Source: Escherichia phage BEU50. Taken from it: a stretch of DNA of 64,000 nucleotides. The notes under the pieces were generated by a model. That model ran no database searches, had not been told where the DNA came from, and was given only the letters and a program-made list of their open reading frames with translations. The translations under genes were made by a program, and so were the position numbers. How positions within the stretch are numbered: the first letter of the stretch is position 1; each line of letters opens with the position of its first letter. Location: sequence record OM632671.1. One strand, 5' to 3'. Positions 13,633 to 29,098 of this stretch are shown here, piece after piece.

Positions 13633-14531
13633 TGGCTATTTTCCGCGTACCTATTTTGAGTATGCGGTCTTATGAAACTGGACAGTATGCCATCCTTAAG
13701 GATGGCAACTTCCAACTTCATTTGCACCGTGCTAATCCAGGTGATGTGATTACATATCCACGTAATGCATCCGATATTAAAGAATGTGAACGTCTTTTCC
13801 CAGAATTTAAGTTTGTTCCATTATGGTATAAAGATAACGCGTATAACACTCGTAAATATTTCTGGTCTGAAAATGAATTTGTGGTTGATTCATTAATCGC
13901 TTATTATGATTGTGATTTTCTAATCACAGATATCACTGGATACGACGGCGCTTTTGATGTAGAATTCAATTTCAATATCACTGCAGACCCTAATAAACCA
14001 CGTTTTTATATTGACGAATTCTTAAAAACCGACATGTTGTCGGTTAATCGTTCAATCCAAACAACTGTGTTGAATAAACGTCAAAAGGAAGTGCTGGTTA
14101 ACGCAGGTGCAGATGGTAATAAGATTATCATAACCCAGAAAGTTATACGTCCTTCCATCATGCAGCGTCTTGTAGGTGATTTAGCTCCTATTCATCTAGA
14201 TGGTATTTTTCATCCATTTCGAATTAGTGACCCGTGCTATCGGTTTGAACAAGTGGTTGAATGTGCAATTCAATTAGGCCAACCGCTTTATATAACCGAT
14301 CCAAATAATAGCTTCGACAGAAATAAGTATCCTGAAGAAGCGCTGATTCGAATTTTTAAACCAACTAAAACTGAGTACTATCAAATTCTTAAAGGACGTC
14401 CGAAGATTCAATATTTCGAAAATCCTGAAGAAGTATTCCATCCAGGTCTTGGTGAGTTCATCTACTTTAATGCTTTAATTTCTTCACCGTATAATATACC
14501 TAAATACGAAGATGTCGTAATCGAGGAATAA
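13632..14531 (+). CDS. Hypothetical protein (299 aa) at the locus where T4 encodes beta-glucosyltransferase
   Basis: ORF with ATG overlapping gene 42 stop; no confident family assignment; position-based suspicion of a DNA-modification role. Confidence 0.4.
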   Translation: MAIFRVPILSMRSYETGQYAILKDGNFQLHLHRANPGDVITYPRNASDIKECERLFPEFKFVPLWYKDNAYNTRKYFWSENEFVVDSLIAYYDCDFLITDITGYDGAFDVEFNFNITADPNKPRFYIDEFLKTDMLSVNRSIQTTVLNKRQKEVLVNAGADGNKIIITQKVIRPSIMQRLVGDLAPIHLDGIFHPFRISDPCYRFEQVVECAIQLGQPLYITDPNNSFDRNKYPEEALIRIFKPTKTEYYQILKGRPKIQYFENPEEVFHPGLGEFIYFNALISSPYNIPKYEDVVIEE

Positions 14532-18167: not shown

Positions 18168-18197
18168 GTTTACATCTTCCTCTAGGCATGATATGAT
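18168..18197 (+). promoter_or_regulatory. Early promoter (GTTTACA, 18 nt, TATGAT)
   Basis: Matches the recurrent GTTTAC-N18-TAnnnT pattern seen before many early genes here. Confidence 0.4.
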
Positions 18198-24076: not shown

Positions 24077-24465
24077 ACCAGGCGAAGGTATGATGCCTAT
24101 TCCTGATACACATGAAAAGGCTTGGGAATACATTGGTGACGGCATGATAGAAGAAGTTGTTCGTCCAAAAACAAAACATGTTAATGCTTCAAGCTCTTCA
24201 AGTTATAATCATTCATACGTATCGTCTTGGCCTGGTGATTCTGGGTCAAGTTATTCTGATTGTGGTTCAAGCTCAGGGAGCTGCGAATGAACAAGATAGT
24301 TAAATGGTTTAAAAGCTGGGACGATGGTGTCGGTCCAGAAGATTGGCTGGATGTTCTTGAAGAGAATATGGCTAAAGAATTCCAGAAACATGAAGAAAAG
24401 CTCGTCGAAGATGAAGGCGAACGTATTGTAAAACTTTATATGGGTGAACCATCGAGGAAATTATA

Positions 24466-24930
24466 ATGGATGCTATGTTATTTAAAATGTATTTGCTTGA
24501 AGCCAAGTCATTTAAACATATACCAGTGGAAGATAAGACTCCACTAGAAATAGCTATTCTCATTAACAAAAGTCTAAATAATCCGCAATATATCGTAGAA
24601 GAATTCTGCAAATTGCAGATTCCTAAAGGTTACAAAATTCGTGTAGAGCGAGTTGGAGCTATTACTCATTCTAAAAATTCTCCGTTTAGTCTTGAAGAAG
24701 GCATAAAGGACTTAGGTTATGAATCTACGGAAAATGCCGTTTATGTGAATCCTGAAAAGCGTTTAGACTTGTTTGAAAAGCGAGACCATAAGTATTTTGC
24801 CAAAAAATACTTTATTACATCATTAGCAGATTTAATCCATTTGCAACGAGCTATTTGGAAATTTTTTAAGACAAAAGGTGTAGCGCTAGAAACATTCTCC
24901 GAGCAGCCTAGTTTTTATTTAGGTGAATAA
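24466..24930 (+). CDS. Hypothetical protein (154 aa)
   Basis: ORF with ATG overlapping upstream stop. Confidence 0.4.
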   Translation: MDAMLFKMYLLEAKSFKHIPVEDKTPLEIAILINKSLNNPQYIVEEFCKLQIPKGYKIRVERVGAITHSKNSPFSLEEGIKDLGYESTENAVYVNPEKRLDLFEKRDHKYFAKKYFITSLADLIHLQRAIWKFFKTKGVALETFSEQPSFYLGE

Positions 24931-25271
24931 TATGGACCTTATGAGTATGTTTGACGAGCCTGAAGTTGAGGCTCCTAAAGTGCATCGTAGTGAACTTGTT
25001 GATGAACTAGATAGTATTATACAACGACACGGCTTTAGTTTACCTGTTGAAGCCCTGAAAGACCTTGCCTCTTATTATGACGACCCTCCGCCATGGAGTC
25101 CTTGGAAATGAAAGAGAAATTTAAAGAGAAATTCTTACTAGAAATCAAGGAAAAAGACTTTGAGACATGGTATCGAATGGTGAAAGGGTTGACATTGCTT
25201 TTTAAAGCATCCTTATTCATGTTAGAACAACCTGGTCCTGATGGTCCTTTAGTAGGAAAGCTTAAAAAGTA

Positions 25272-25300
25272 GTTTACATTCCCTCCTCTCGTGTTATGAT
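25272..25300 (+). promoter_or_regulatory. Early promoter (GTTTACA, 17 nt, TATGAT)
   Basis: Upstream of the 25328 start. Confidence 0.4.
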
Positions 25301-25327
25301 AGGCTTATCTTTAAATGGAGGTCTATC

Positions 25328-25909
25328 ATGACATGTCAATCTGAACTTCAAGAACGTGAATACCTAACAAATCTGATTGATAGCAAATTCACCCGCCAAG
25401 AACAAAACATTCTCTGGGCTTGCACCGATTCTAAGGAAGACCCGGATTTCCACTATGAATTAGACCATCTTGTTCGTAAGCATATGACTTCTACAGTACC
25501 AGTAGAACTCTACCGTGGTGTAACTCCAGAAGAAGTAGAACGTCTTTCCCTTCTTTCTGTTGGATGCCATTGGTCTCCTGGACGAGTAACATCGTTCACA
25601 ACTGATTTCAGTACAGCTCGTCAATTCTCCGGGAGTTGGGAATATCAGACGTACACTATTCTTAGTCTCAGGAATGCTCCATTCATTTTTGATTACTACC
25701 AAAACATGATTAACATTGTACTTGCCGGAAAGAACCCTAAGCATGTTATGGAAGAAACTCGTATCGATGTCCTAGATATGATTGAATCTGAACAAGAGTA
25801 CATGGTCTCAGGCATCTCTCGATTTGAGATTGTGGAAATTGAAGACTTAGAATATGACCCTTTATCTCGATTATACAAAATCATTCATTTGAAAATGTTG
25901 AATTTTTAG
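25328..25909 (+). CDS. ADP-ribosyltransferase-like protein (ModB/ModA family paralogue 1)
   Basis: R-S-E type spacing: LYRG (Arg), TTDFSTARQFS, EQE; T4 position of modA/modB between soc and dda. Confidence 0.5.
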   Translation: MTCQSELQEREYLTNLIDSKFTRQEQNILWACTDSKEDPDFHYELDHLVRKHMTSTVPVELYRGVTPEEVERLSLLSVGCHWSPGRVTSFTTDFSTARQFSGSWEYQTYTILSLRNAPFIFDYYQNMINIVLAGKNPKHVMEETRIDVLDMIESEQEYMVSGISRFEIVEIEDLEYDPLSRLYKIIHLKMLNF

Positions 25910-25966
25910 TGTACAAACTCTTCCGATGATGATATTATACCTTTATCAACCACAGGAGAAACCTAA

Positions 25967-26575
25967 ATGTTTATGCCGTATAACGAGTGTGAAATTGAAG
26001 AAATGGTTCGTCGTGCTCAAAACCCCGAATATCAAGATGTATTGCAGTACGAAATTGATAGTCAATTCAACGATAATGAACAAAGCATCCTTTGGCAGTG
26101 TATGGAAAACAAGCCAGACTGTATTCAACAGGAGTTAAGTTCAATCGTTCGTAGAAATTGGACGTCTTCTGTTCCTGAGACAATGTATCGTGGAATCTCT
26201 AAGAAAACTATGGCCACACTTGATGATAAAGGCATTGGTAGTATTATTAAATTTGACAGAGTAATGAGCTTCAGCCCAGTGTTCGGTGTAGCACGTAACT
26301 TTGCTTCGTATAATTTTTACGGAACATTTAATATGTTCTGCATCAAAGATGCACCATTTGCTTTCAACTTCCGTGAACATATGCTTAACATGATTCTGGC
26401 CGCGCCATCTTGCGAGTTCAATGGAGCTTTCCCTGAAGCGACAAGACGGTCTAATGCTAGACTTATATCTGACGAATGTGAATTTATGCTCCCTATAGGG
26501 ACTACACTGCGTGTAGATTCTATTATTCAAGATGGACGTTATACAATCTGGAATCTATCTATTGTCAGTTACTGA
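25967..26575 (+). CDS. ADP-ribosyltransferase-like protein (ModB/ModA family paralogue 2)
   Basis: Paralogue of 25328..25909 (ILWxC, SxVP..xYRG, FxF/STS-like, ECE motif). Confidence 0.5.
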   Translation: MFMPYNECEIEEMVRRAQNPEYQDVLQYEIDSQFNDNEQSILWQCMENKPDCIQQELSSIVRRNWTSSVPETMYRGISKKTMATLDDKGIGSIIKFDRVMSFSPVFGVARNFASYNFYGTFNMFCIKDAPFAFNFREHMLNMILAAPSCEFNGAFPEATRRSNARLISDECEFMLPIGTTLRVDSIIQDGRYTIWNLSIVSY

Positions 26576-26650
26576 CTGAATTGGAATAACCGGATGGAAC
26601 TCAGAACCATTATAACACATAAAAAATTAAAGCATTTTACGAAAAAAGAG

Positions 26651-26678
26651 TGTACACTACCTGAGGGCATGATATTAT
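26651..26678 (+). promoter_or_regulatory. Early promoter-like element (TGTACA, 16 nt, TATTAT)
   Basis: Upstream of the 26728 start. Confidence 0.3.
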
Positions 26679-26727
26679 AAGCTTATCAGCTAAATGACCT
26701 AACGTCCGTAAGACAGAGGAAAATATT

Positions 26728-27474
26728 ATGTTATCAAATAATAAAATTAACAAAATCAATCGTCGTCTTGACCACACCAGAGCTTCTGCGAAGAGACGCT
26801 CTAAGGATTTTAACTTAGACTTTAATTACCTTAAAAACATTCTTGATCAAAAGGTCTGCGCTTACTCAGGTGAATCTTTTAATAACTCTGTTGAAGGTGA
26901 GAAATTATCCTTAGAACGTTTTAATAATGATATAGGCTACATTAAAGGTAATGTTATCCCAGTTAAGAAAAAATATAACACGGCTCGTTCTGATTTAACA
27001 TTAGAAGAACTTATTGGGAAACGTGATGCCATTGCAAGACGTATCGCTAATCCTTCTGTCAGTAAAGTAGAGAAACTTAATCTTGACGAGAAGAAATGGG
27101 CCCAAATTAAAAAGGTTTATGATACTATTTTAAAAATCCGAGCAAAACGTGAAAATCGTGTTAAGCATATGGCGAACATGATGAAAAATCAACCTTTATC
27201 TAACGAATCTAAACTTAGAATTGTTGCTTTGAAAGCACGCATTAATGGCTCACATCAAGCACTAGGCCATGAACTTACTAAACTCAACGTTCTTCTTAAA
27301 GGCTCTGACTGGAAAACTAAAACTAAATTAACTGACGCTGAATCGCTTTTCGATACATATGATAAAGTTATCCAAGGTCTGCAACGTTTTGAAAAGATTG
27401 GTTTCATTGGTAAATTAAAATTGAAACGTGGCTTACCACTTAGCGCATCATTATTCCAACTGATTAAAGGTTAA
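26728..27474 (+). CDS. Hypothetical protein (248 aa), possibly HNH-like nuclease-related
   Basis: Weak HNH-like segment CAYSGESF...ERFNNDIGYIKGNVIP; position of T4 srd. Confidence 0.35.
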   Translation: MLSNNKINKINRRLDHTRASAKRRSKDFNLDFNYLKNILDQKVCAYSGESFNNSVEGEKLSLERFNNDIGYIKGNVIPVKKKYNTARSDLTLEELIGKRDAIARRIANPSVSKVEKLNLDEKKWAQIKKVYDTILKIRAKRENRVKHMANMMKNQPLSNESKLRIVALKARINGSHQALGHELTKLNVLLKGSDWKTKTKLTDAESLFDTYDKVIQGLQRFEKIGFIGKLKLKRGLPLSASLFQLIKG

Positions 27475-27476
27475 TT

Positions 27477-27788
27477 ATGGTTTATGTATATGCAATAGTT
27501 TATCGAGATATGGAAGGATTTACTGTCCCGGTTCCACTTGATGAGCATCGTCCTGCAGTATTTTTTAGAAAGGATATTGCAGATAAAGTTTTCGATACTT
27601 TGAAAACACAGTATAAAACAGATTTAAAAATGGGAGTTCTAAGAATGGTCGAAACTCCGCGTAAGTTCTGGTTTAATAAGCTTGAAATGAAACACGTTAA
27701 ACTAGATGCGGAGACGCAAAGATTGTATCAACGAATCCTGGACACAGGCCGTATTGTTAGTATTCCAATTGCAGGGACTTTACGATGA
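27477..27788 (+). CDS. Hypothetical protein (103 aa) upstream of dda
   Basis: ORF; overlapping stop/start with dda. Confidence 0.35.
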   Translation: MVYVYAIVYRDMEGFTVPVPLDEHRPAVFFRKDIADKVFDTLKTQYKTDLKMGVLRMVETPRKFWFNKLEMKHVKLDAETQRLYQRILDTGRIVSIPIAGTLR

Positions 27789-29098
27789 CATTTGATGATT
27801 TGACTGAAGGTCAGAAAAACGCCTTCAACGTTGTTATGAACGCTATTAAAGAAAAGAAACATCACGTAACTATTAATGGGCCTGCTGGTACAGGTAAAAC
27901 AACCCTTACTAGATTCATCGTTGAAGCCCTTATTTCTTCTGGAGAATCAGGTATTATTTTAGCAGCCCCTACACATGCTGCTAAAAAGGTTCTAAGCAAA
28001 CTTGCTGGTCAAGAAGCATCGACTATTCATAGCATTCTTAAAATCAACCCAACTACATACGAAGAAAACGTATTGTTTGAACAGAAAAAGGTTCCCGACT
28101 TAGCCTTGTGCCGTGTACTGTTATTTGATGAAGCGTCAATGTGCGACCGTTCTCTGTTTAAAATAATGTTAGCTAGTATCCCTAAATGGTGTACAGTAAT
28201 TGGAATCGGCGACCGATGCCAGATTCGACCGGTAGACCCAGGCGAATCAACTGCGTATCTAAGTCCTTTCTTCACTCACAAAGACTTCGTGCAATGCAAC
28301 CTTACAGAAGTTAAACGTAGCAATGCACCAATTATTGATGTTGCGACTGATATTCGTAATGGCAAATGGATTTACGATAAAGTAGTTGATGGGCACGGTG
28401 TTCATGGATATACAGACCTTAAATCGTATATGATGAACTATTTTAACGTTGTTAAAACTCCTGAAGACCTTTTCGAAAATCGAATGATGGCATTCACAAA
28501 TAAGTCAGTGGACAAGTTAAATTCAATTATTCGCCGAAAACTTCTTGAAACAGAAAAACCATTTATTAAAGACGAAGTCATTGTTCTACAAGAGCCATTT
28601 ACTAAGACATATAAGCTAGATGGTAAAAATATGACCGAAATGCTTTTCAATAACGGGCAATTCGTTCGTATTCGAGATGCTGTAGAAACGTCTACATTCG
28701 TTAAAGCACGTGGTGTTTCAGGCGAATATATGATACGATACTGGAATCTTACAGTAGAAACATATGGGGATGATGAAGAATATATCCGCGAAGATATAAA
28801 GGTTATTTCTTCTGAAGAAGAGCTTTATAAATTCAATTTGTTTTTGGCTAAGACTGCAGAAACATACAAATTCTGGAATAAAGGTGGTAAAGCTCCATGG
28901 AGCGAATTCTGGGATGCTAAACGTATGTTCACTAAGGTGAAGGCACTACCTGTATCAACCTTCCATAAGGCCCAGGGTATGTCTGTTGACACGGCCTTTG
29001 TTTATACACCGTGTATCCATTATGCTGATTCAGAATTAGCTAAACAGTTATTGTATGTCGGCACGACTCGTGGTCGTTTTGACGTCCATTTTATTTGA
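27785..29098 (+). CDS. dda: SF1 DNA helicase Dda
   Basis: Walker A NGPAGTGKTT; 437 aa; RecD-like motifs; T4 synteny with dexA. Confidence 0.9.
   Translation: MTFDDLTEGQKNAFNVVMNAIKEKKHHVTINGPAGTGKTTLTRFIVEALISSGESGIILAAPTHAAKKVLSKLAGQEASTIHSILKINPTTYEENVLFEQKKVPDLALCRVLLFDEASMCDRSLFKIMLASIPKWCTVIGIGDRCQIRPVDPGESTAYLSPFFTHKDFVQCNLTEVKRSNAPIIDVATDIRNGKWIYDKVVDGHGVHGYTDLKSYMMNYFNVVKTPEDLFENRMMAFTNKSVDKLNSIIRRKLLETEKPFIKDEVIVLQEPFTKTYKLDGKNMTEMLFNNGQFVRIRDAVETSTFVKARGVSGEYMIRYWNLTVETYGDDEEYIREDIKVISSEEELYKFNLFLAKTAETYKFWNKGGKAPWSEFWDAKRMFTKVKALPVSTFHKAQGMSVDTAFVYTPCIHYADSELAKQLLYVGTTRGRFDVHFI

Follow-up and report, generated by a model that had tools for sequence, protein, structure and literature searches.

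Two adjacent open reading frames (ORFs) were investigated in a stretch of 64,000 nucleotides (nt) of Escherichia phage BEU50 (OM632671.1), which is called the window in the following. ORF1 (25328..25909, plus strand, 193 amino acids (aa)) and ORF2 (25967..26575, plus strand, 202 aa) are very probably mono-ADP-ribosyltransferases of the Mod family within the R-S-E clade, located at the ModB and ModA position, respectively, of a Mosigvirus (RB69-like) genome. By sequence identity they are the orthologues of RB69 modB and RB69 modA. The assignment is supported by homology and gene order, by a conserved catalytic motif and a predicted ADP-ribosyltransferase (ART) fold, by purifying selection on both genes and by promoter motifs upstream of them. 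A preliminary description of the window had noticed two neighbouring ORFs of these sizes, and both are present on the plus strand at exactly these positions. The feature is already known: it is the ordinary modB/modA pair of RB69-like phages, annotated since the original record of RB69, the type Mosigvirus, as modB (193 aa) and modA (200 aa), and the pair is annotated in more than 100 further Mosigvirus records.

The two proteins are paralogues with conserved blocks, as had been proposed. In a BLASTP alignment of 147 aa, 34% of the residues agree between ORF1 and ORF2 (E = 8e-28), a similarity far above chance level. Both match PHROG 832, annotated as 'RNA polymerase ADP-ribosylase' (5e-38 for ORF1 and 1e-37 for ORF2). 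The identity is 99.0% between ORF1 and RB69 ModB (NP_861709) over all 193 aa, and 93.5% between ORF2 and RB69 ModA (NP_861708) over 200 aa. Relatives were detected by tblastn in about 1,060-1,080 phage records, mostly annotated as ADP-ribosylase, ModA or ModB. In tblastn, T4 modB was 38% identical to ORF1 and 31% identical to ORF2; over all comparisons with T4 ModA and ModB the identity of both ORFs was 25-38%, and the catalytic R, S and ExE were kept.

The family PF26816 was precomputed on 33 of 33 homologues taken from a large protein collection, among them the cluster representatives P0001 and P0022, which are near-identical to the query proteins. A profile of 35 family members was searched against 1.84 billion representatives and found only 132 clusters (at 50% identity) with E <= 1e-3. 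Hence, the Mod family is small. Some of the distant matches of this profile, P0081 (2e-21) and P0161 (5e-15), carry Pfam PF03496 (ADPrib_exo_Tox) above the gathering score, a connection at the sequence level between the Mod family and the R-S-E ADP-ribosyltransferases of the C3/VIP2 type. The name 'Mod family of the RSE clade' is used by Iyer et al. (PMC9503650). A second PHROG was also matched, PHROG 26695 ('unknown function', 125 positions), by the C-terminal half of ORF1 (residues 82-193; 3.6e-41) and by ORF2 (2.2e-19). Judged by these matches, this PHROG seems to have been assembled from Mod genes that are truncated or split, and would thus be an unannotated family of fragments of the same ART.

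The catalytic residues were located in two alignments, one with four sequences (ORF1, ORF2, T4 ModB and T4 ModA) and one with 35 sequences (both ORFs and 33 homologues). In ORF1 these are R63 in a YRG motif (codon at 25514..25516, plus strand; strand E60-64 of the structural model described below), aligned to R73 of T4 ModB, the S-T-S-type motif S89-F-T91 (25592..25600, plus strand; model strand E88-91) and the ExE motif E155-Q-E157 (25790..25798, plus strand; start of model strand E157-160). ORF2 contains R75, likewise in YRG (codon at 26189..26191, plus strand; model strand E72-76), S101-F-S103 (26267..26275, plus strand; model strand E100-103) and E170-C-E172 (26474..26482, plus strand; directly before model strand E173-175). 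The equivalent Arg is R73 in T4 ModB and R72 in T4 ModA. From R to S both ORFs have a spacing of 26 residues, and from S to E the spacing is 68 residues in ORF1 and 71 in ORF2. The Arg of Y/W-R-G, the Ser of S-x-S/T and both Glu of E-x-E form invariant columns. Thus, the motif R / S-x-S / E-x-E of the preliminary description is present and aligned in both proteins, except that the middle element of ORF1 reads S-x-T, as in T4 ModB. The catalytic Arg and Glu are conserved when both ORFs are aligned to T4 ModA and ModB, and the loss of these residues, which had been named as a ground for refutation, was not seen. Arg-specific protein ARTs are marked by the ExE version of the motif, in contrast to QxE or HYE. 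For T4, R73 of ModB is known as the catalytically important Arg, ModA and ModB carry R-S-EXE, and the ExE motif of both enzymes has been tied to Arg-specific protein transfer (PMC10468400).

One variation close to the motif was observed in the ORF1 orthologue of Mosigvirus LF82-9 (1862-2443), which has the three consecutive substitutions T144K, R145L and I146V. R145 is otherwise invariant in the 35-sequence alignment and in T4 ModA and ModB; it is non-catalytic and is located in the helix preceding ExE.

Structural models of both proteins were calculated with AlphaFold2 from the 35-sequence alignments. The predicted local distance difference test (pLDDT) and the predicted template modelling score (pTM) were 89.1 and 0.84 for ORF1, and 94.0 and 0.88 for ORF2. 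According to these models, both ORF1 and ORF2 are predicted to adopt the ART fold. The S-x-S/T motif is placed on a core strand followed by a helix (E88-91/H94-101 in ORF1, E100-103/H106-113 in ORF2). An Arg on a strand, S-x-S/T on a strand followed by a helix, and ExE at the entry of a strand are the canonical placement in R-S-E ARTs. In a Foldseek search against the PDB all top 50 matches of both models were R-S-E ARTs, among them Certhrax, CDTa, iota toxin Ia, C3bot/C3larvin, HopU1, XopAI, Vis, Tre1, VIP2 and ExoT; the best E-values were 5e-6 to 1e-5, with template modelling (TM) scores up to 0.57. Models of viral Mod proteins match those of the ORFs at a TM-score of 0.80-0.86. The ORF2 model reached 0.86 (29% identity) with the ModA model of Tequatrovirus Sf22 and 0.85 (38% identity) with the model of the single-copy 'modB' of Serratia phage CBH8. 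Among the PDB chains no solved Mod structure was found. The identification as R-S-E ADP-ribosyltransferases, already put forward in the preliminary description, is where PHROG 832, the identity to RB69, the alignment with T4 and the predicted ART fold all agree.

With the bacterial R-S-E toxins of the C3, VIP2 and iota-toxin type (PF03496) ORF1 and ORF2 have the fold and the order of the catalytic elements in common, at Foldseek E-values of about 5e-6 to 1e-4, TM-scores of 0.4-0.57 and identities of 9-18%. In contrast to these secreted toxins, the Mod proteins belong to the early proteins of phages, and their N-terminal region consists of four helices. T4 Alt also belongs to the RSE clade and ADP-ribosylates the host RNA polymerase and other proteins (PMC9503650, PMC2988021), but it is much larger than the Mod proteins, packaged in the virion and encoded elsewhere in the genome. 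Membership of the two ORFs in an Alt/VIP2 family was considered and rejected: they have 193 and 202 aa, compared to about 650-700 aa for Alt, they are located in the early region and not near head genes, and the structural match to the Alt of phiAS5 (647 aa) is weak (E = 1.5e-4, TM-score 0.43).

In the window, mrh is followed by two small ORFs and then by ORF1, ORF2, srd, dda.1 and dda. The gene order in T4 is mrh ... modA.2 - modB - modA - srd - dda.1 - dda, and the order from modB to dda matches; the T4 modA/modB position of the preliminary description was therefore found again. The neighbouring genes were identified as mrh (24466..24930, plus strand, 154 aa; Pfam T4_MRH, 3e-38), srd (26728..27474, plus strand, 248 aa; PHROG 1400, 4e-99, more exactly 3.6e-99), dda.1 (27477-27788; Pfam Phage_Y01A) and dda (27785-29098; Dda SH3 domain, 5e-50). 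Escherichia phage NRG-P0074 (Mosigvirus, Tevenvirinae), in which both genes carry the annotation ADP-ribosylase, matches the locus 24400-27800 with 99.6% identity, and many further Mosigvirus records match it with 98-99%. A coverage of the locus of at least 80% was found for 152 phage records. RB69 ModB and ModA are essentially the same genes as ORF1 and ORF2, in an identical locus order. The RB69 locus differs by a few substitutions, by a split mrh and by the start of ORF2, which is two codons longer in the window (ATG 25967 vs 25973). Two in-frame ATGs are found here 6 nt apart, at 25967 and 25973 (MFMPYNE...); the first one is used in the annotation of NRG-P0074 (202 aa) and the second one in that of RB69 (200 aa). 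AGGAG is located 8 nt before the ATG at 25967, and the ATG of ORF1 has the Shine-Dalgarno sequence GGAGG at about 25318-25322.

Both ORFs are under strong purifying selection. Compared to the orthologues of LF82-9 (92% nucleotide identity), the ratio of non-synonymous to synonymous substitution rates (dN/dS) was 0.11 for ORF1 and 0.14 for ORF2, and the neighbours gave similar values of 0.10 (mrh) and 0.26 (srd). The catalytic residues are identical between the ORFs of the window and these orthologues.

Motifs of the T4 early promoter type were found at the locus. GTTTACA-N14-TGTTATGAT (25272..25300, plus strand) is located 28 nt upstream of ORF1, and GTGTACA-N15-TGATATTAT (25909..25938, plus strand) lies in the ORF1-ORF2 spacer of 57 nt. 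A third early-promoter-like motif precedes srd (26650-26678, plus strand); the motifs before ORF2 and srd have the common variant GTGTACA ... ATGATATTAT. In the window the pattern GT[GT]TAC-N13-16-TGnTATnAT occurs seven times on the plus strand and not at all on the minus strand, with 0.035 expected per strand from shuffled sequences. The remaining four plus-strand copies are at 18168, 18602, 31297 and 40380. A generic sigma-70 scan was not enriched (12 found vs 10.8 expected). In T4 the early promoters have GTTTAC as their -35 consensus (PMC1524935), and early expression was described for T4 ModA and ModB (PMC10468400, PMC2988021). The same early motif is found 27 nt upstream of T4 modB, and T4 modA, which overlaps modB by 4 nt, has no separate motif. 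As far as motifs indicate, early expression of both ORFs fits these results, and the Mosigvirus spacer may hold an extra promoter.

T4 ModB (P39423), described as an ADP-ribosyltransferase and RNAylating enzyme, resembles ORF1 as the first gene of the pair behind an early-promoter motif, in its size (207 vs 193 aa), in the R-S(F)T-EQE motif and in an identity of 31-38%. In contrast to the overlap in T4, the pair of the window is separated by the spacer with its own promoter-like motif. T4 ModA (P39421), acting on Arg265 in the alpha subunit of RNA polymerase, resembles ORF2 by its slot directly upstream of srd, its length (200 vs 202 aa) and its R / S-x-S / E-x-E motif, at an identity of 31%. 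However, the paralogues with which ORF2 clusters are the downstream ones of VR26 and CUA3, and not T4 ModA.

The relation to the T4 enzymes was examined by pairwise identities and by neighbour-joining trees with 200 bootstraps. ORF1 is 30% identical to ORF2, 31% to T4 ModB and 25% to T4 ModA; ORF2 is 31% identical to each of T4 ModB and T4 ModA; and T4 ModA and T4 ModB share 26%. The trees place ORF2 in a supported clade (bootstrap 94-97) together with the downstream copies from Gaprivervirus VR26 and phage CUA3, and ORF1 next to the upstream CUA3 copy (bootstrap 95-100). T4 ModA, T4 ModB and the upstream copy of VR26 each stand on their own long branch. T4 ModA and T4 ModB, together with the ORF1 and ORF2 types, make up four deep lineages, about 25-31% identical to each other. 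Because the backbone of the tree is a star, the names ModA and ModB rest on gene order outside Tequatrovirus. A single mod gene is found in the same slot in Karamvirus CC31, Kagamiyamavirus EcS1, Winklervirus CHI14 and Klebsiella phage HMGUkp2. The upstream 'modB' of VR26 (1851-2408, 185 aa) falls outside both the ORF1 clade and T4 ModB; in one tree it is placed weakly with T4 ModA (bootstrap 62) and in the other with the homologues P0050, P0054 and P0057. In different genera the upstream mod slot thus appears to be filled by different Mod lineages, which suggests a replacement in this slot by recombination.

Several results weigh against the assignment as ModB and ModA of an RB69-like phage, either against the family membership or against the equivalence to T4. 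Scans of ORF1 and ORF2 against NCBIfam and a Pfam-A copy lacking the model PF26816 gave no meaningful match. Sequence and profile searches against the PDB chains remained below threshold, with XopAI as the best match (E = 0.13); the aligned part of this match is the ExE motif. The backbone of the trees is star-like, with deep bootstraps of at most 32 and many nodes below 10, and no supported clade of ORF1 with T4 ModB or of ORF2 with T4 ModA was obtained by neighbour joining. ORF2 is equidistant from T4 ModA and ModB (31%), and its best tblastn match in T4 is modB. The strict motif before ORF2 was not found at that position in LF82-9. In the body of literature searched, no experiment on RB69-type enzymes was found.

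For the mode of action of the two enzymes, a mechanism by analogy to T4 and to general ART chemistry can be proposed, in which we infer enzymatic activity, arginine specificity, the timing of expression and, above all, the host targets. The unmodified host RNA polymerase would probably transcribe both genes early from the promoters of T4 early type. In each enzyme of about 200 aa, nicotinamide adenine dinucleotide (NAD+) would be bound in the ART cleft by the conserved Arg and the S-x-S/T strands. With the glutamates of ExE stabilising the oxacarbenium intermediate and activating the arginine that serves as acceptor, as in general ART chemistry (PMC9503650), ADP-ribose would then be transferred to arginines of host transcription and translation proteins, and the host machinery would be redirected to the phage. 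T4 ModA modifies both alpha subunits of the RNA polymerase at Arg265 (PMC2988021, PMC3014915), and for ORF2 the same residue would be the most likely site. T4 ModB acts on rS1, EF-Tu and trigger factor, and accepts NAD-capped RNA as donor for the RNAylation of rS1 and rL2 (PMC10468400). Correspondingly, ORF1 would most likely act on rS1, EF-Tu and trigger factor and would possibly attach NAD-capped RNA. Both putative targets are assigned by genomic position. Target assignment by name is weak, since orthology with T4 ModA and ModB is unsupported by the trees. The preliminary description had suggested different targets for the two paralogues from their divergence. This is a reasonable expectation by analogy, because T4 ModA and ModB are about 25% identical and yet differ in their targets (PMC10468400).

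Both proteins could also be active ARTs that divide the host targets differently from T4, with translation factors as targets of both, with swapped roles or with new targets. We regard this as possible, but clearly less probable than a division as in T4. It is favoured by the four deep lineages of about 25-31% identity with their star-like backbone, by modB and not modA as the best T4 match of ORF2, and by the upstream 'modB' of VR26, which groups, if weakly, with T4 ModA and not with ORF1 or T4 ModB. Several genera have a single mod gene in the slot, so that the target set must be flexible across the subfamily. On the other hand, the synteny is exact, and the phage has the same host as T4 (E. 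coli), so the same targets are present. Furthermore, ORF1 is nearer to T4 ModB (31-38%) than to T4 ModA (25%), and the ORF2 model superposes on the Tequatrovirus ModA model with a TM-score of 0.86. Given four lineages at roughly equal distances from each other, the Mosigvirus pair might be functionally non-equivalent to T4 ModA and ModB, with at least one ORF acting on another set of host proteins or with RNAylation located elsewhere or absent; we consider this a tentative reading with the odds against it.

Two further explanations concern the catalysis itself. It is highly improbable that one copy is a catalytically inactive pseudo-enzyme, serving as decoy or regulator beside an active paralogue. 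Nothing specific points to it, except that tandem paralogues often diverge in this way and that the LF82-9 orthologue of ORF1 has R145L, in a non-catalytic column. Both copies have the full R-S-ExE triad, which is invariant across the family, both are under strong purifying selection and both models are confident, complete ART domains. With all catalytic residues conserved and a low dN/dS, the pseudo-enzyme was rejected. Equally small is the chance that the main activity of the two proteins is that of NAD+ glycohydrolases, or is directed at substrates other than protein (DNA or RNA bases), and is not that of protein-arginine ADP-ribosyltransferases. The ART superfamily does contain NAD+ glycohydrolases and members modifying nucleic acids (PMC9503650), and T4 ModB takes NAD-capped RNA as donor (PMC10468400). 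However, the ExE motif points to Arg-specific protein ARTs, and the nearest characterised relatives are protein-Arg transferases. The assignment of ORF1 and ORF2 as Mod-family mono-ADP-ribosyltransferases is preferred over these explanations.

The Mod family is a textbook example of the takeover of the host by a phage, and the pair has little weight as a discovery. Its value is rather in the annotation and in comparison. Since Mod paralogues across Tevenvirinae genera are about 30% identical, with an orthology that is not resolvable, 'RNA polymerase ADP-ribosylase' for both copies and the names ModA and ModB outside T4 are unverified annotations. The RB69-type enzymes would be natural comparators for the determinants of target choice and RNAylation in ModB. 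For T4 ModB no crystal structure is available, and the determinants of RNAylation are not established (PMC10468400; bioRxiv 10.1101/2025.07.11.664405). If the pair were indeed non-equivalent to that of T4, names based on synteny would mask diversified targets of host takeover among close coliphages.

Some further observations were made on the neighbouring genes and on the window as a whole. The gene mrh is intact, as one ORF of 154 aa, in the window and in NRG-P0074, and is annotated in RB69 (NC_004928) as two short ORFs, RB69p023 and RB69p022 (14050-14259 and 13794-13979). Either a frameshift or sequencing error in RB69 could account for this, or mrh could be genuinely split there. Over its N-terminal 100-150 residues, Srd also matches PHROGs with the annotations endonuclease, HNH endonuclease and endonuclease VII (phrog_3322, 5e-18, residues 9-105; phrog_3118, 6e-15; phrog_1035, 2e-10); a Pfam scan of Srd gave no match. 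These N-terminal matches suggest that Srd, known as 'anti-sigma / RNase E-stimulating' protein, carries an HNH/EndoVII-like N-terminal domain. In the whole window (1-64000) no tRNA genes were found by a tRNA scan and no Rfam family at the gathering threshold. The GC skew is positive across the window except at 50-56 kb, as would fit one block of minus-strand genes in that part.

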